From: a virus
Lineage: Duplodnaviria; Caudoviricetes
Strand: one strand, 5' to 3'
DNA length: 31,325 nucleotides
Virus record (IMG/VR): IMGVR_UViG_3300045526_000100
Coordinates: 1-31,325 of that record
Shown in pieces: positions 1 to 30,660 of this stretch. Each line of letters starts with the position of its first letter. The stretch's first letter is position 1. The notes under the pieces are model-generated. The model was given only the letters and a program-made list of their open reading frames with translations. It was not told where the DNA came from and did no database searches. Made by a program: the position numbers and the translations under genes.

Positions 1-109
1 GGCGATCACACTCAAAATCGACACCCACTACCCCCACCTCCTGAGGTAGCTATCCTCATAAGTAAGGGCCAGGTGGGGGTAGTGGGTGTCGATTTTGAGT
101 GTGATCGCC
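1..109. repeat. Perfect 39-bp inverted repeat (1-39 vs 71-109) with a 31-nt spacer, overlapping the terminase start
   Basis: GGCGATCACACTCAAAATCGACACCCACTACCCCCACCT (1-39) is the exact reverse complement of 71-109, checked base by base. Confidence 0.95.
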
Positions 110-2374
110 GGTGGGAACGTGCTGGAGCCTCCGCAGCGCACCAGCACCCGCTGCACCGAGAGCTACGCCTCGCTGAAGAAACGCATCTACGCGGGCCTAC
201 TCCCGGCCCAAAAAGAGTTCGTTGACGACAACGAGCACCTCATCCTGGGGTTTTGCGGGGGATTTGGCTGCTTGGCAGGTGAGACGCTGATTGGTGGAGT
301 ACCAATACGCGATCTCACCAGCAAGCCAATAAAGGTAGAGACCATGGCGGGAGCCGCATGGGCAACACCCGCCTACGTCAAAGGGTATGCAGCTCTTTAC
401 CGGGTTCGGACTCAAGGCGGTCGAGAGTTTCTGGCAACCAAAGACCATTTGTGTCTTTCGCCAGACGGCTGGGTGAGCGTTGGCCGCCTGTCGTCAGGTT
501 CTCTCGTTGCCGTTGGTGATAAAGCGAGTGATCAGACATTGAGCGAAAGAGCCACAGGTTGCTCAGGGTCTGATCAGTTGGACACTCGTTCATGTGATGG
601 ATCACCCACCCCGTGGGAAGTCTTTGCCCAAGAGCTGACTCAACGGCTCGTCGGGCCCAGTATTTCCCGGCATCCCGGTCTTTCGACCCAACGGTTCGCC
701 CCTTTGATTGAGGGTTCTCAATGCCAGCTTGGGCACCACGGCTCTTTAGCAAGCCTTGTGTCTGCAGAAACGTCCGCATGGTGCCTTCGTGAACACCAAA
801 GCGGTACTTCAGTTCACGCATATTCACACCTTCCTCTAAGTAGTCCCGCACAACGGCAGCTTTCAGGTCCAGCAGCTTTTCGTAGCCAGTCACCCGCTGG
901 GTTGGTCGCGGCAGGCTATAGCGTTCAACCCAACGCCCAATGGTGGCCTTATCAATCTTGTGCTTCTCGGCCAGAAACTGGTACGAGTAGCCGTCCGCCA
1001 AGTCTTGGAGAAGCAGCTTACGCCTCAGATCCGGCAACGTTTCCCAGCGAACCCTTTGCTGACCCATACCCAAGCGACGAGTATTACCAGTATAAGTGGG
1101 ACCGCGTTAAAGACGTTACCTATGCAAGGCACGACCTGTTCTACGACCTGCACGTCCCTATTTGGAACCATTACCTAGCTAATGGCGTTGTCCACCACAA
1201 CAGCGGTAAGACCAGAAGTTTGTGCGCCAAGGCTCTCAAACTGTGCATGGACAATCCAAACACCGTGGGAGCCGTCTTCGAACCCACCAACATCCTGCTA
1301 AGAGACGTATGGATGCGCAGTTTCGACGACTTCTTAACAGAACACCAGATTGAATACGACTTTCGGGTGTCCCCGCAGCCCGAATACATCGTCCATTGCC
1401 CTAACGGTCCCGCCACACTGATTTGTAGAGCTACCGAGACATGGAATAGGGTGCGAGGTTTTAATTTGAGCTTCGTTTTGGCCGATGAAATTGATACTTC
1501 TCCCATGGAAGTTGCGCAGAAAGCGAGTGAAATGTTTTTGGCCCGACTTCGTGGCGGCAAAAAGCCCCAGTTGGCAGTCGCCTCAACGCCTGAGGGCTAC
1601 AAGTGGATGTACCGCACCTTCGTTGAGAATGGTGACACCCCTGATCGTCGGCTGATCAAAGCCAAGACGACCGACAACCCCCACCTCCCGGCGGGTTTCG
1701 TCGAGTCGCTATACCAGAACTACGACGCCAACCTGATCGCCAGCTACATCAATGGCGAGTTCACCAACCTTGAGAACACCACCGTCTATCACCCGTTTGA
1801 CAGGGATCGGCATTGGTGCGACACGGAGATCCAGGCTGACGATCGCCTGCTGATTGGGGTGGACTTCAACGTCGGTGCCGTGTTCACCGAGGTAACGGTC
1901 CGTAGGGGCGAAGAGTTCCATGTGGTAGCGGAGCACTACCCCAAGGACACCCCTGCGCTGGTGCGGCTGCTGCAGGAGACCTACCCCCGGCATGTAGAGG
2001 CCGGGAACGTGGTGATCATCCCTGACGCGGCGTCACGGCAGCGCACCACCACCAACGCAGCGGAATCGGACCTGTCTCTGCTGCGCAAAGGGGGGTTCAC
2101 GATCAAGGCGCAGCAGGCCAACCCCCAGATCGCAGACCGGGTGAACTGCATCAACGTGCTGCTGATGGCGGATCGGTTGAAAGTCCACAACCGCTGCAAG
2201 TACCTGATCAAGTCGATGGAGCAGCAGTGCTACGCGAAGGACGGGAAGCCGGAGAAGGGGATCGGCGGCCTGGATGACGTGAGCGGCCCCGTGGACGCAC
2301 TGGGCTACTGCATCCACTACCTCGCCCCCCTACGCCGTTGGGCGACAGGTGGGTCTTCTTTCCGCACGTACTAA
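86..2374 (+). CDS. terL: Terminase large subunit, intein-containing precursor (762 aa; about 451 aa after splicing)
   Basis: Removing the intein restores Walker A GGFG|SGKT. Also seen: Walker B VLADEID, coupling motif ASTPEG, RNase H-like nuclease IGVDFN and C-terminal D(x)nDALGY. Lies upstream of the portal gene. Confidence 0.95.
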   Translation: MSILSVIAGGNVLEPPQRTSTRCTESYASLKKRIYAGLLPAQKEFVDDNEHLILGFCGGFGCLAGETLIGGVPIRDLTSKPIKVETMAGAAWATPAYVKGYAALYRVRTQGGREFLATKDHLCLSPDGWVSVGRLSSGSLVAVGDKASDQTLSERATGCSGSDQLDTRSCDGSPTPWEVFAQELTQRLVGPSISRHPGLSTQRFAPLIEGSQCQLGHHGSLASLVSAETSAWCLREHQSGTSVHAYSHLPLSSPAQRQLSGPAAFRSQSPAGLVAAGYSVQPNAQWWPYQSCASRPETGTSSRPPSLGEAAYASDPATFPSEPFADPYPSDEYYQYKWDRVKDVTYARHDLFYDLHVPIWNHYLANGVVHHNSGKTRSLCAKALKLCMDNPNTVGAVFEPTNILLRDVWMRSFDDFLTEHQIEYDFRVSPQPEYIVHCPNGPATLICRATETWNRVRGFNLSFVLADEIDTSPMEVAQKASEMFLARLRGGKKPQLAVASTPEGYKWMYRTFVENGDTPDRRLIKAKTTDNPHLPAGFVESLYQNYDANLIASYINGEFTNLENTTVYHPFDRDRHWCDTEIQADDRLLIGVDFNVGAVFTEVTVRRGEEFHVVAEHYPKDTPALVRLLQETYPRHVEAGNVVIIPDAASRQRTTTNAAESDLSLLRKGGFTIKAQQANPQIADRVNCINVLLMADRLKVHNRCKYLIKSMEQQCYAKDGKPEKGIGGLDDVSGPVDALGYCIHYLAPLRRWATGGSSFRTY
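269..1201 (+). mobile_element. Intein (311 aa, Cys1 to His-Asn, +1 Ser) inserted in the terminase P-loop
   Basis: Block A CLAGETLI starts at TGC 269. Block B ATKDH is at about 434-448. Blocks F/G FYDLHVPIWNHYLANGVVHHN end at 1201, and the next residue is Ser (SGKT). Confidence 0.95.
378..1067 (-). CDS. HNH homing endonuclease with two N-terminal HTH-like segments, encoded antisense inside the intein
   Basis: ATG at 1067, or TTG at 1073. RRAVESALGQRLPTGWVIHHMNECPTDQTLSNLWLFRSMSDHSLYH resembles phage HNH (HNH_3-like) nucleases. GYSYQFLAEKHKIDKATIGRWV and GVNMRELKYRFGVHEGTMRTFL are HTH-like. Confidence 0.85.
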   Translation of the reverse strand: MGQQRVRWETLPDLRRKLLLQDLADGYSYQFLAEKHKIDKATIGRWVERYSLPRPTQRVTGYEKLLDLKAAVVRDYLEEGVNMRELKYRFGVHEGTMRTFLQTQGLLKSRGAQAGIENPQSKGRTVGSKDRDAGKYWARRAVESALGQRLPTGWVIHHMNECPTDQTLSNLWLFRSMSDHSLYHQRQRENLTTGGQRSPSRLAKDTNGLWLPETLDRLESEPGKELHTL

Positions 2375-2709
2375 TGAAACGCGAACGACTTGCTTTAGGT
2401 CCTGCGATCAGCGTCGAGAGTGCTCTCGACACCAACGGCAGGTATTACATCACCTACGCGAAGGGAGCGAGTGTGTTCCTGCGGGAGGCGAAGGAGGTCC
2501 GGCGGTTCCTGAAGTTTGCCAAGAGCACGCCATCACGGGAGGCACTGGATGCGTGGTTAGAGGAGCTGGCCGCGGCGGACAGTGCCCGCCGGGAGCGCCG
2601 CGAAGCGGCGACCCAGGGCTTATCCGAGGAGGTGTTAGCGACGGGCTTTGGGCCTGAGTGTCACCTGGACGAGAGCGATCCGAACTATGCGACCCGGACG
2701 GTGGTGTAG
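2374..2709 (+). CDS. Hypothetical protein (111 aa)
   Basis: The ATG overlaps the terL stop (TAATG), suggesting translational coupling. It fills the gap before the portal gene. Confidence 0.75.
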   Translation: MKRERLALGPAISVESALDTNGRYYITYAKGASVFLREAKEVRRFLKFAKSTPSREALDAWLEELAAADSARRERREAATQGLSEEVLATGFGPECHLDESDPNYATRTVV

Positions 2710-2717
2710 GTGCTGCA

Positions 2718-2728
2718 GGAAATCTCGG
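2718..2728 (+). promoter_or_regulatory. Recurrent motif GGAAATCTCGG (putative late promoter)
   Basis: Intergenic, 21 nt before the portal start; one of about 14 similar copies. Confidence 0.6.
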
Positions 2729-2749
2729 CTATACGTGTGACTGCGAAGC

Positions 2750-4306
2750 GTGGCTGATAACAGCACCTACCCCCTGCGTGCGACATCAGCTGTTCCGCTA
2801 CAGCTGCAGTACGGCAATGCAGACGACCCGAGCGTTCTGAGCAGTGCGGTGTTGTCGATGCTGCCCCAGTGGGAGCCGATTGACATTTGCATTGGCGGCA
2901 CGGCTGTTCTCCGTGCCAACGCTGAGAAGATCATCCCCCGCGAACCAAGCGAAGCCCGCGAAAGCTACGAGCGTCGGATCTTCCACGCGACGATGCCGCC
3001 GTTCCTGCAGCGCCTGGCCTCCCAGGCTGCGGGCGTGATCCTGCGCAAAGGTATCCAGATTGAGGGGGACGAGTATTGGGAGGAGTGGATCAAAGATGTC
3101 ACCGGCGACGGCACCACCCTCAACGAGTACGCCCGACGCCAGTTGGTGACGGCGATCCTTTACGGCCACAGCAGCAGCATCGTTGATTTTGTCAACGACA
3201 CCACGGCCCGCACACTTGCCGAGGAGCGTCAGCTGAACCGCAAGCCATATCTGGTGCCAATCCACCCGCGTCAGATCATGGGCTGGCGCACCAGCAATGA
3301 CTCCAACAGCAGCGACCTTGCTCAGGTGCGTATCAAGGAGCGTGTCGTTACCGGCAAGGGCGCCTATGGCGAGGAGCTGATCGATCAAATCCGCGTCATG
3401 GAGCCGGGCCGCTACGAGCTATGGCGTACACCGGCGACGACCTCGCTAACGACGGTGGCGAAGTGGGAGTTGGAGCAGCGCGGCACGACCAGCCTTGACC
3501 GCATCCCGCTTGTCACGGTTTATGCCAATCGTCAGGGCAATTTGCTGAGCGTTCCGCCGCTGTTGGAGGTGAGCTGGTTGTGCATCGCCTATGCGCAGCG
3601 CTTCTGTGACTTCCACCATGCCGTCCACGTCAGCGCCAACCCCATGTTGGTGTTACGGGGGTTTGATCCCGATAGCGACGCTGAACTGGGCATCAGCGTC
3701 AACACGGCGCTTCTCCTACCCCCAGATGGTGGTGCGGAGTTTGTGAGCCCTACCACCGAAGCCTTTGACAGCCAGATGCGGTGCCTCCAGTCGTTGGAGG
3801 ATCAAATCAGCCGCCTTGGCATCAACACGCTCAGCAGCCAGAACCTCACCAACGCCGCTGCCGAGGCACGTCGTCTGGATCGCATCGACAGCGACTCGAT
3901 TATGGCGGTCATCGCAGGGGATCTGGAGCGGGCGGTGAGTCAACTGTTTGAGCTGGCGGCCGAGTATGTGGGCATTGAACCCCCGACTGTCTATATCCCG
4001 CGGGACTACGACAACCGCCTTGTTACCGGCAACGACATCACCGCCTACCTGCAGCTCTACATGCAGGGAGCGATCAGCCAAGAGACGTTGCTGGGGATTT
4101 TGCAAGACGGCGAAATCCTCCCAGCCACGTTGTCGATTGACGAGGAGATCAGCCGCACCAAGGAGATGTTGGAGGAGCAGCAGGCGATGGAGCGTCTTGC
4201 GATGGGGGATGGCGCTGACATGGCGTTCCAGAACGCGGGTCAGGGGGAGTCACTTAGCAGCCAGACGCTGCCCACACCTCTGCGTCCTGGCCGTAACGCT
4301 GACTGA
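2750..4306 (+). CDS. Portal protein (DUF4055-like)
   Basis: 518 aa, follows the terminase. IPREPSE...YERR, KPYLVPIHPRQIMGWR and PPLLEV motifs are typical of this portal type. Confidence 0.88.
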   Translation: MADNSTYPLRATSAVPLQLQYGNADDPSVLSSAVLSMLPQWEPIDICIGGTAVLRANAEKIIPREPSEARESYERRIFHATMPPFLQRLASQAAGVILRKGIQIEGDEYWEEWIKDVTGDGTTLNEYARRQLVTAILYGHSSSIVDFVNDTTARTLAEERQLNRKPYLVPIHPRQIMGWRTSNDSNSSDLAQVRIKERVVTGKGAYGEELIDQIRVMEPGRYELWRTPATTSLTTVAKWELEQRGTTSLDRIPLVTVYANRQGNLLSVPPLLEVSWLCIAYAQRFCDFHHAVHVSANPMLVLRGFDPDSDAELGISVNTALLLPPDGGAEFVSPTTEAFDSQMRCLQSLEDQISRLGINTLSSQNLTNAAAEARRLDRIDSDSIMAVIAGDLERAVSQLFELAAEYVGIEPPTVYIPRDYDNRLVTGNDITAYLQLYMQGAISQETLLGILQDGEILPATLSIDEEISRTKEMLEEQQAMERLAMGDGADMAFQNAGQGESLSSQTLPTPLRPGRNAD

Positions 4307-4309
4307 ACC

Positions 4310-4555
4310 ATGCGCCACCACCCCAGCTGGCGTGAAGTACGCCACGAGTACATGCGCAACCTTGTACCAAGTCACGCCAGCTGTGCGATCTGCCGGTGGT
4401 GGCATCCCGAGAGTTCAGCAGCTGCGGATCCTGTGGGTTTCTGCCACTTCAACCCACCGACTGTTGAGGGTTGGCCTGAGACCAACGGCGATGAGGACGT
4501 GTGCAGCTTCTGGGAGACGGACTACGACCCTACCCCTCGCGTTGAGGCAGCATGA
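4310..4555 (+). CDS. Small Cys-rich, putative metal-binding protein (81 aa)
   Basis: Pattern CAICRWW...FCHFNPP...WP...CSFW. Its stop overlaps the next ATG (ATGA). Confidence 0.7.
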   Translation: MRHHPSWREVRHEYMRNLVPSHASCAICRWWHPESSAAADPVGFCHFNPPTVEGWPETNGDEDVCSFWETDYDPTPRVEAA

Positions 4556-5379
4556 CCAACGAGGAGTATCTGCGGGAGCTGGCGGCTGCCATCACCCGTC
4601 AGGAGGACTTGAGTGACGAGGCAGCGCAGCAGGTGCTCTATGAGCTGGCGCTGCGCATTTATGCGTTGCTGCTGAAGCGTCTACCGGAGAACCGCTTTGA
4701 GCGATACCTGAGGTGGCCTGAGATTCGTCGTCAGATTGTGCCGTGGCTGTCGCGGGCCAACGACCTGCTGGCGGTGGCGGTATTCAACCGTCTGGTGGGC
4801 ACCGAAACCTTAGTGATTGCACCAACGGCACGGCGTTTTGGGTTGGTTGAGGGTCAGCTCACCCCCCGCCTGGTCACGCAGGTGATGGATGACACCCAAG
4901 TGGTGGGTGTCAGCGTGAGTGCGTTGTTCGCACGTAACCCGACGACAGGGCAGTCACCGTGGGTTACGCAGATGCTGCAGCTCTTGGAACGCAGTGTGAT
5001 CAGCCAGTTCTTCCAGGACCCACCAACCAGCGTGGTGGCGCAGAAGGTGGTGGGTGTCCGTACAAGCGCCGGCAAGGAAGTCCCAGTGGTGAGCAAGGGG
5101 ACGGTGGCTAATGCGTGGCGTGAACGTCAGCGGAACATTGTGGCTGCGGCGTTATGGGGCACGGTGGTACCAACAGCAGAGAGGGCTGCAGAGATTGCCG
5201 CGACGACTGGTCGTCCACCTGTTTTGATCTGGCGTTGGAACGCGATCCTCGATCCCAAGACTTGTCCGGTGTGTCGTCCGTTGCATCGAACAACCGCACC
5301 AACCCCTCAGGCATTTCCGCAGGGAGCACCACCGCTCCACCCCCGGTGCCGTTGTGTGGTATTGCCGGTGATGGAGTGA
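4552..5379 (+). CDS. Head morphogenesis / minor capsid protein (SPP1 gp7 / MuF-like)
   Basis: C-terminal WNAILDPKTCPVC...PPLHPRCRC signature; located after the portal. Confidence 0.88.
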   Translation: MTNEEYLRELAAAITRQEDLSDEAAQQVLYELALRIYALLLKRLPENRFERYLRWPEIRRQIVPWLSRANDLLAVAVFNRLVGTETLVIAPTARRFGLVEGQLTPRLVTQVMDDTQVVGVSVSALFARNPTTGQSPWVTQMLQLLERSVISQFFQDPPTSVVAQKVVGVRTSAGKEVPVVSKGTVANAWRERQRNIVAAALWGTVVPTAERAAEIAATTGRPPVLIWRWNAILDPKTCPVCRPLHRTTAPTPQAFPQGAPPLHPRCRCVVLPVME

Positions 5380-8466: not shown

Positions 8467-9042
8467 GTGTCTAACACAGCTCTAGCTGACGAGCCGGTAT
8501 CGCCGGACAAGTCGGTGCGCCGCAGACCACGCACCGGCTACTTAGCCACGCCCCTCACAAAAGACGAGCAGCGGCATGTCGGGGACATGTACCGCAAGCA
8601 CCAAGGCATCTTGCGGCTACTGGGCCGCAAGCTCTGTCGCAAGTACCCCTTTGTCAGCGCAGAGGACATCTTCTCTTGCATCGACACCGCCTTCATCAAG
8701 ACCTGCCGCGCCTGGGATCCAGCTAAGGGAGCGTTCTCAACGCTGCTGACCGTCTTTAGTGAGGGTGATGTACTCCACTTCATCCGCGACCACAACTGGA
8801 CGGTCAAGGCACCTGGGGCCGTCCGGCGTTTAGGCCAACTGGCCAGGCGGATGCTGGAGAAAGGCCACTCCATGGGTGAGGTGCGACAGGAGCTAGGGAT
8901 CAGCGACGAACAGCTCAAGCTGGCGTTGATCGCCACCCAACCCACCGACCACGACATCCGAGGCTTTGACCTGCATATCTGCCCGCGACCCAACCCATGG
9001 GAGATGTTGGAGGAGACGGAGTACGGCTACGCGGAAAGCTAG
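8467..9042 (+). CDS. Truncated sigma-70-family factor (regions 2-3 only, SigF/group-3-like)
   Basis: AEDIFSCIDTAFIKTCRAWDPAKGAFSTLL...GDVLHFIRDHNWTVKAP resembles region 2 of SigF/SigB-type sigmas. SMGEVRQELGIS is a region-3 HTH. The protein ends at 191 aa without region 4. Confidence 0.75.
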   Translation: MSNTALADEPVSPDKSVRRRPRTGYLATPLTKDEQRHVGDMYRKHQGILRLLGRKLCRKYPFVSAEDIFSCIDTAFIKTCRAWDPAKGAFSTLLTVFSEGDVLHFIRDHNWTVKAPGAVRRLGQLARRMLEKGHSMGEVRQELGISDEQLKLALIATQPTDHDIRGFDLHICPRPNPWEMLEETEYGYAES

Positions 9043-29393: not shown

Positions 29394-29744
29394 ATGGCTT
29401 GGGGTGAGTGGATGGTCGCTAAGCCGCAGCCGGAGCACCTGCTGAATCTGGAGCAGCAGCGGCGAGTGATCAAGACGATCAACCTGGAGCAGGCCCGTGA
29501 CATGCTGTGGCGGCTATGTCAGCTGACGCTGCACCAGGATCTGATCTTGCGTGCTGCGACTAAGCGGATTGCAGAACTGGAGCTTTCCATCGAGCTTGGC
29601 GTTCCTTCATCGGCAGGGTCTCCGGTATCGGGGGAGCCAGCCGCACCGGCGGCTGAACAGGAGGAACCACCGGCTCAGGGGCTGACGCATGTGCCGTGGG
29701 CGCTTCGTCTTGTTCGCACGGTTCTTGCATTGCGAGGGGGTTAA
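29394..29744 (+). CDS. Hypothetical protein (116 aa)
   Basis: MAWGEWM...ILRAATKRIAELE helical core with a motif upstream. Its C-tail overlaps the sigma gene. Confidence 0.65.
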   Translation: MAWGEWMVAKPQPEHLLNLEQQRRVIKTINLEQARDMLWRLCQLTLHQDLILRAATKRIAELELSIELGVPSSAGSPVSGEPAAPAAEQEEPPAQGLTHVPWALRLVRTVLALRGG

Positions 29745-30660
29745 GGCCCGCACGCCCCAGCTGGAAGCGGAGTTTGCGAACGGCACGCTCAGTGATTTGC
29801 CGCACCCGCTCACGGGAGGTGCCGGCCTGACGGGCCAGCTCTGCGTTGGTCATGCAGACACCATCCACAAGGCCGTACTTGCTCACAAGGAAGTCACGCT
29901 CCCGCTCGGTGAGGTGCTCCATGGCAGCCACCAACACCGGACGCCGCAGTTCCAGGTCCAGAGCGATGTCAGCGTCGTCGCGGTCTTTCTCGTCCTCATA
30001 AACGATCAGATCCATCAGACGGGAGCAATCGTGATCAGCAAGCACCTGTGAGTCAAGTGAGATGGTGCCGTTTCCGCGGTTACGCAGCAGCACCAGCTCC
30101 TCAACGGGGACGTTGAGGTCATCTGCCAGCTCCTGCATCGTGGGCTGTCTATGCAGATCGTGCATAAGCCGCTCATAGGTTTTGGCGAGCTTCCCCGCCA
30201 GCTCTGCGATGTGGTGGGGGCGACGGATCGCCCACTCCTGTTGCGCGATGGCGCGGGTGATGGCTTGGCGAATCCACCAGTAGGCGTAGGTGGAGAACTT
30301 GTAGCCGCGGGCGGGGTCGAACTTCTCAGCGGCACGCACCAACCCGCTGGAGCCCTCCTGGATCAGGTCAAGCATGTCCAGCGACTGCAGGCGACGCTGG
30401 ATGTACTTACGGGCGACAAAGACGACAAGGCGGAGGTTGGCGGTCACCATCCTCTCCTTGGCGCGTTTGCCCTTACGCACCAGCACCTTCTCGGTCTTGG
30501 TGAGTTCACGGGTTTCGGCTTCGACTTCCAGGGCTATGGACTGTTGGATCAAGCGACCGAGGGTGATCTCCTCGTCATTGGTGAGCAGGGGGATGCGACC
30601 AATGTCATCGAGGTAGCGATCAACGCTGGAGCGTTCGTGATTGGCAATGCGAGCGGTCAT
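29560..30660 (-). CDS. RpoD/SigA-family (group 2-like) RNA polymerase sigma factor
   Basis: YLDDIGRIPLLT..EEI (region 1.2), ANLRLVV, DLIQEG, EKFDPARGYKFSTYAYWWIRQAITRA (region 2) and SRERVRQI (region 4.2). Confidence 0.95.
   Translation of the reverse strand: MTARIANHERSSVDRYLDDIGRIPLLTNDEEITLGRLIQQSIALEVEAETRELTKTEKVLVRKGKRAKERMVTANLRLVVFVARKYIQRRLQSLDMLDLIQEGSSGLVRAAEKFDPARGYKFSTYAYWWIRQAITRAIAQQEWAIRRPHHIAELAGKLAKTYERLMHDLHRQPTMQELADDLNVPVEELVLLRNRGNGTISLDSQVLADHDCSRLMDLIVYEDEKDRDDADIALDLELRRPVLVAAMEHLTERERDFLVSKYGLVDGVCMTNAELARQAGTSRERVRQITERAVRKLRFQLGRAGLNPLAMQEPCEQDEAPTAHASAPEPVVPPVQPPVRLAPPIPETLPMKERQARWKAPVLQSA

Follow-up and report, generated by a model that had tools for sequence, protein, structure and literature searches.

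The window analysed here is the whole of a 31,325-nt metagenome contig (IMG/VR record IMGVR_UViG_3300045526_000100) assigned to the Caudoviricetes. Its first ~27 nt resemble a fold-back artefact. A (+) strand reading frame at 83..2374 carries the gene of the terminase large subunit, terL (86..2374, a precursor of 762 aa if the GTG at 86 is the start), which matches Pfam Terminase_6N and 6C as well as the PHROG terminase. Downstream lie the portal, scaffold and capsid genes and other head and tail genes. The closest terminases of isolated phages are those of cyanophages (~41% identity) and the best-matching sequencing runs carry the label freshwater metagenome. Together these matches and this label allow a weak guess at the host, which might be a picocyanobacterium.

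The terL frame remains open through an intein of 311 aa (269..1201, + strand) located in the Walker A motif (GGFG|SGKT). Its ends are set by empty alleles, compared to which it is a precise insert at a conserved motif, and it matches the Pfam profile Intein_splicing (36.7 bits for a cut-off of 35.8). All residues of a class 1 (Hint) intein are present from C269 to HHN1201: C1, T57-K-D-H60, D293, H310-N311 and S+1. The N-terminal splicing region (aa 1-84, 269..520), which includes block B (T-K-D-H, 437-448), is conserved among 16 alleles and aligns with the DnaB and RecA inteins of the PDB. The C-terminal splicing region (1097..1201) carries blocks F and G, with the block F Asp at 1145-1147, and was defined from the same structures and alleles. 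They are separated by a sense "shadow" linker of ~190 aa (521..1096), which is stop-free and shows no conservation of its protein sequence; searches with the middle part (518-1087) gave no match in Pfam or PHROG. A canonical bifunctional intein was rejected since neither collection identifies an in-frame endonuclease domain between blocks B and F and the middle is unconserved. A split intein or fractured gene was also rejected: the host gene is unbroken and none of the 16 complete inteins contains a stop. The intact splicing residues, in an essential gene, suggest that the intein is competent for splicing. No second copy of the element was seen elsewhere in the contig.

The opposite strand of the intein carries the gene of P0001, a protein of 229 aa encoded without internal stop (378..1067, - strand, read from 1067 to 378). 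Two tandem helix-turn-helix (HTH) domains (aa 13-51 and 61-103; 759..1031, - strand), the predicted DNA-binding part, are followed by a linker, an HNH core (aa 139-184; 516..653, - strand) and a C-terminal tail (378..515, - strand). P0001 matches Pfam HTH_Tnp_1 (E 1.5e-5, over the cut-off), PHROG 7545 HNH endonuclease (E 5.6e-11) and, under the cut-off of 24.8 bits, Pfam HNH_3 (E 0.0012, 18.8 bits). The HNH_3 match is found at E <=0.01 in 29 of 30 family members (best 2.2e-9). An earlier note, made from the letters of this DNA, had described a terminase intein with intact splicing blocks, a sense middle part lacking any endonuclease motif and an antisense 229-aa ORF with HTH and HNH segments; the searches agree with this description, with the HNH_3 score as a reservation.

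The best match of a 68-sequence profile of the HNH core is I-HmuI (E 0.0035), an intron-encoded enzyme. The AlphaFold2 model of the core (pLDDT 82.7) consists of two strands and a helix, and its fold matches are headed by I-HmuI, although weakly (Z 4.3 with an rmsd of 7.1 over 73 residues). Judged by their titles, five of the six best matches are HNH or His-Me nucleases, the highest Z being 4.3. The HTH domains are modelled with pLDDT values of mostly 82-94 and their fold matches are HTH proteins (best Z 6.2), the only part matched in whole-protein fold searches. With the HNH domain Foldseek returned nothing at E 0.001, and phmmer searches of the PDB with the HNH part gave chance matches only. 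The catalytic residues of I-HmuI in the beta-beta-alpha-metal site, given as D74, H75 and N96 in the accessible part of PMC12724721, align to H157, H158 and H180 of P0001, while I-HmuI N87 aligns to N170. These four P0001 residues, as well as H184, are invariant in 15 close sequences. The close family has D-Q in place of I-HmuI N82-N83, with Q166 at the N83 position in 15 of 15 sequences. Position 166 is Asn in 53 more distant sequences, whose selection pattern allowed only N or Q there. The replacement of N83 by Q166 may have altered the nuclease activity. P0001 is likely, as a prediction, an HNH endonuclease of the I-HmuI type.

A protein search with P0001 retrieved 31 homologues (46-73% identity) among 422 candidates, and locus searches of viral and metagenome contigs gave 28 loci. 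One of them (L028), a 48-residue HTH-only match (E 6e-4) in a different HNH-type ORF with no visible intein, was left out of the counts. All 27 remaining loci (24 complete, 3 cut by contig ends) carry an antisense HNH gene inside a TerL intein. Once 9 exact duplicates are removed, they correspond, window included, to 16 distinct complete alleles. The insertion site is the Walker A motif (G-F/Y-G|S-G-K) in 15 of these and lies elsewhere in L027; the antisense register is identical in all 16. Ten pattern-matching stretches in bacterial and archaeal genome contigs included no true relative and none of 50,697 annotated phage records matched P0001. Neither a mini-intein at the same site nor a close free-standing HNH relative was found in the locus searches.

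A profile search for the wider HNH family gave 108 cluster representatives at E <=1e-10, the closer members of which also possess the C-terminal tail. Among the best 80 loci of these distant relatives, 13 (11 distinct) are antisense HNH genes in intein-like inserts, three of them (L081, L103 and L107) on weaker evidence. In two others an in-frame match to Hint is present, a weak one, and no intein is visible in the remainder. L064 is one further distant antisense case, while in L063 the HNH is in frame within an intein of an SbcC-like ATPase. The register of the window is common to all 12 distinct distant antisense cases.

Conservation of the two frames was compared across those HNH codons that do not overlap the N-terminal splicing region, in the 16 distinct complete alleles (120 pairs). 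Identity is higher in the HNH frame than in the sense frame in every pair (medians of 53% and 26%), and the median pN/pS is 0.51 versus 1.27. For the window and its nearest allele (L001) the HNH frame gives a dN/dS of 0.22, the sense frame one of 1.64. Sense-frame values above 1 are a by-product of selection on the opposite strand. None of the 16 alleles has a stop in the sense frame, where random synonymous recoding of the HNH gene leads one to expect 3.3-8.3 each. For the allele of the window 4.6 are expected on average, and only 8 of 2000 recoding trials gave zero. The antisense register used here is the most stop-prone of the three: in the other genes of the window (14 coding stretches) it contains ~12 stops per 229 codons and is open in none of 381 overlapping 229-codon control windows. 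These comparisons support purifying selection on the HNH gene, opposite a sense shadow peptide that appears unconstrained yet stop-free. Both the opening of the two frames over ~690 nt and the purifying selection on the minus frame had been put forward in the earlier note and are upheld.

The same figures bear on the suspicion that the double open frame is due to chance or to assembly, to which the metagenomic origin of the contig and its fold-back-like first ~27 nt might lend some credit. That explanation is refuted, its probability being practically nil. Besides the closed control windows, the layout is common to 15 other distinct alleles, and a contig of 2246 nt from run X1 spans the whole element without differences, three short contigs from another sample also matching inside it.

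The HNH gene extends beyond the shadow linker, as the final ~45 codons share their DNA with intein residues 37-84, block B included. In this tail overlap synonymous change in the sense frame amounts to 0.34-0.41, versus 0.60-0.69 in the stretches devoted to splicing only (10 of the 16 alleles, excluding two with indels and four near-duplicates). This depression implies that both proteins are under selection there, the tail region being dual-coding with selection acting on the two strands.

Empty alleles were found close to the window. One contig (L029), 96-97% identical to the window on both flanks, reads GGFG|SGKT without insert. It possesses the closest extein (99% aa identity) and is sister to the window on the extein tree (SH-aLRT 99 on a quick tree). 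A contig of run X3, from another study, also skips exactly 933 nt at the insertion site. The intein-less allele anticipated in the earlier note therefore exists, in a near-identical phage. A search with the C-extein gave 32 loci; the insertion site is included in 29, every one of them empty. This ratio is no estimate of frequency, since near-copies occur among these loci and intein-bearing alleles already known escaped the search patterns.

The history of the element differs from that of its host gene. Over 9 alleles, a set without near-duplicates, short exteins or L027, identity of the splicing domain correlates with that of the HNH protein (rho 0.85; 1 of 2000 permutations as high) and not with that of the extein (rho -0.07), while the correlation between HNH and extein is not significant (rho 0.22; 282 of 2000 permutations). 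For example, L008 and L010 are 83% alike in the splicing domain and 36% alike in the extein. Judged from the sequences, the splicing domain and the HNH gene travel together and separately from the terminase, having moved jointly and horizontally. This inheritance, which follows the intein, makes it very improbable that the HNH protein is a terminase helper acting in the cleavage of genome ends, in the manner of the small HNH proteins that cos phages possess, with the intein merely housing it. The gene does sit in a packaging gene and HNH helpers of terminases are known (PMC3592412 and PMC11855218, in their available parts); but P0001 lacks the CxxC zinc sites described for those helpers, and the 29 related terL loci covering the site are all free of such an insert.

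Domestication is a somewhat less remote idea, albeit an improbable one. The antisense protein would have lost cutting and would bind DNA, or its transcript would dampen terL. Q166 in place of a usually conserved Asn, the presence of two or three regulator-like HTH domains and a tail conserved over block B for no evident reason could all be read in this way. They are opposed by the invariance of all putative metal and general-base histidines, by the 97% identical phage without the element at the same site and by movement of the element between terminases only 36-40% alike.

Intein presence on the sampled extein tree requires only 2 changes, and a gain in the line of the window is consequently not separable from a loss in its relatives. 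SNPs relative to L029 occupy 4 of 30 positions within 15 nt of the site and 48 of 1594 elsewhere (p 0.014), a weak hint of co-conversion near the insertion site. The +1 residue is Ser in all 16 intein-bearing alleles. It is Ala in 11 of the 29 empty alleles, which could not support splicing as they stand.

A predicted -10 box, TATACT, is located 21 nt before the HNH ATG (1094-1089, - strand), inside the codons just before block F. A TAnnnT motif occupies the homologous minus-strand place in 16 of 16 alleles, compared to a background of 58 in 16531 positions, although these alleles are related and do not amount to 16 independent trials. The sense residue beneath the box varies (Tyr, Phe, Ala, His) but its codon always ends in T, versus 9-55% in exteins. 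The same region of the 12 more distant antisense inteins includes four perfect TATAAT and two TACAAT, which are not aligned. A -35 box could not be recognised, and the two-hexamer promoter scan gave no site. The minus strand also carries one terminator-like hairpin (234-219), no more than chance would give (1.5 expected). The conserved box is a good hint that the HNH gene may be separately transcribed from an internal antisense promoter. The antisense expression independent of late terL that the earlier note had proposed is thereby favoured as far as the -10-like box is concerned, and is not backed by a two-hexamer promoter.

Selection across the family does not prove that the copy of the window is itself active, and it could be a recently inactivated relic passively carried by a splicing intein. 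This seems unlikely, to about the same degree as domestication or slightly more so: the reading frame, the active-site residues and the -10-like box are intact, dN/dS to the nearest allele is as low as given above, and a near-identical phage supplies an empty target.

With the anatomy, the two-strand selection, the exact empty allele and the joint movement established by observation, the interpretation we retain, and regard as quite probable, is that of a homing element. The terL mRNA would be translated across the stop-free shadow linker, and the intein, through Cys1, the block B His, the block F Asp, His-Asn and Ser+1, would excise itself together with the shadow peptide and restore the Walker A motif. 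A dedicated antisense promoter, with its -10 box lying in the codons of the intein's C-terminal part, would drive the HNH gene, which need not wait for late terL expression. By analogy with known homing systems, the tandem HTH domains may attach close to the intein-free Walker A site in a co-infecting phage, the I-HmuI-type core may nick it, and repair templated by the intein-bearing genome would copy the 933-bp element across.

As for origin, an HNH gene may plausibly have invaded a mini-intein; a tail that reaches into block B would be consistent with loss of the gene's original stop. An in-frame HNH that became inverted is another possibility. More tentatively, with a confidence a little short of even, antisense-HNH inteins could form an old and populous class of selfish elements that code on two strands, reside in phage terminases and are mobile to this day. 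C-terminal codons of the intein would have been shaped into the nuclease promoter and the block B region would double as the nuclease tail. A sigma70-type polymerase would allow early synthesis of the nuclease, soon enough for recombination, instead of late synthesis along with the terminase. They would then constitute a design in its own right and not a rare intermediate toward in-frame inteins.

Several consequences may be drawn. An active nuclease may lie concealed opposite inteins that are classified as "mini" or "decayed", and gene callers will report one frame and overlook the other. In this family, ~690 nt naturally code on both strands; ~140 nt of them are selected for protein function in both directions, and the likely promoter sits within the splicing region. 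The element bears on the acquisition of nucleases by inteins and on the timely expression of a nuclease housed in a late gene. The window is a good test case since the 97% identical phage supplies a natural empty target.

The earlier note considered the architecture undescribed, a view that has to be abandoned. [quoted passage not shown] The element of the window resembles them in its contiguous intein, unstructured sense middle, opposite-strand nuclease ORF, terminase host, signs of continued spread and proposed origin. It combines, as they do, an opposite-strand nuclease ORF in a contiguous intein with a patchy spread and a history unlike that of the host gene. It can be considered a variant because its matches are to HNH and HTH only, not to LAGLIDADG or VSR-like nucleases. 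Within the same text HNH occurs in frame only, without an antisense HNH type being listed, and no internal antisense promoter is described.

I-HmuI and its family (Pfam HNH_3; PDB 1U3E) provide the best profile and fold match for the core, with D74/H75/N96 corresponding to H157/H158/H180; P0001 differs by its tandem HTH domains before the core, by Gln at N83, by His at D74 and N96 and by its antisense position in an intein. An out-of-frame LAGLIDADG in the DnaX intein was reportedly described by Gorbalenya in 1998, a work we know through citations. In cyanobacteria, the DnaX intein with its out-of-frame LAGLIDADG is under frame-specific selection (Phillips et al., bioRxiv 10.64898/2026.09.14.751524, available part). 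As in the window, a separate overlapping nuclease ORF is under purifying selection with a raised host-frame dN/dS, the nuclease and splicing domain share a history, and empty alleles occur alongside. However, the DnaX nuclease is a LAGLIDADG in a bacterial gene and is read, in the accessible sections, as a +2 ORF by Phillips et al. (antisense according to Gosselin et al.).

Two further systems share part of the layout. The ShiLan insertion in phage methylases, as presented in the available part of PMC11855218, also conceals an HNH ORF beneath a host frame devoid of stops, but on the same strand, with no splicing domain and with a zinc-finger HNH. Fractured genes (Dassa et al. 2009, as reported in the accessible text of Gosselin et al.) likewise place a nuclease gene between two splicing halves; they differ by a host gene split into two pieces and by a VSR-like nuclease, whereas the intein of the window forms one continuous frame. 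No antisense HNH intein was found in the literature searched, a body in which most subscription journals fall outside coverage, and the available parts of PMC1635734 and PMC4760082 contain nothing on antisense intein nucleases. The two-strand layout is itself known, and what the present element appears to add is the HNH type, a splicing region that codes for two proteins and a probable promoter inside the intein.

Eleven of the 29 empty terL alleles that cover the insertion site (L029-L060, loci found with the C-extein) carry Ala at +1 (G|AGKT), the position of the first extein residue after the intein. Splicing in G|AGKT alleles would be impossible with Ala at +1 unless the intein brings in a Ser. 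The Ala is possibly a route to immunity.

The contig starts with a perfect inverted repeat of 39 nt (window 1-109). Its first ~27 nt are likely a fold-back artefact, since the sequence there is different both in L029, a near-identical phage with an empty terL site, and in run X3, a sequencing run of another study. A natural hairpin, strong at about -40 kcal/mol in L029, spans the terL start region and could limit terL translation.

Two sigma70-like genes are present in the window: one (29560-30660, minus strand) includes regions 1.2 to 4 and the other (8467-9042, plus strand), located among head-tail genes, has region 2 only. In L027, an intein-bearing allele at a site other than Walker A, and in L065, a locus from the wider HNH family searches, an in-frame ATG of the antisense gene lies only 6 nt after a TATAAT. 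With this spacing the transcript would be leaderless.

The L028 HNH-type ORF (1404-2078, plus strand) carries an HTH at its C-terminal end and shares an FGVHEGT motif with the antisense HNH family of the window; its surroundings contain no visible intein. Among the loci from the wider searches, L081 (1194-3965, minus strand) and L107 (1119-3755, minus strand) each have an antisense HNH gene in a Hom_end-type intein near an apparent Walker B motif, and the last residue of the L081 intein seems to be Gln. In L063 (2348-4945, plus strand), an SbcC/Rad50-like ATPase is interrupted at its Walker A by an intein with an HNH in frame. In L064, a terminase-like gene (2156-4882) has a Walker A intein; the HNH gene antisense to it, at 2565-3323 on the minus strand, is a different one.
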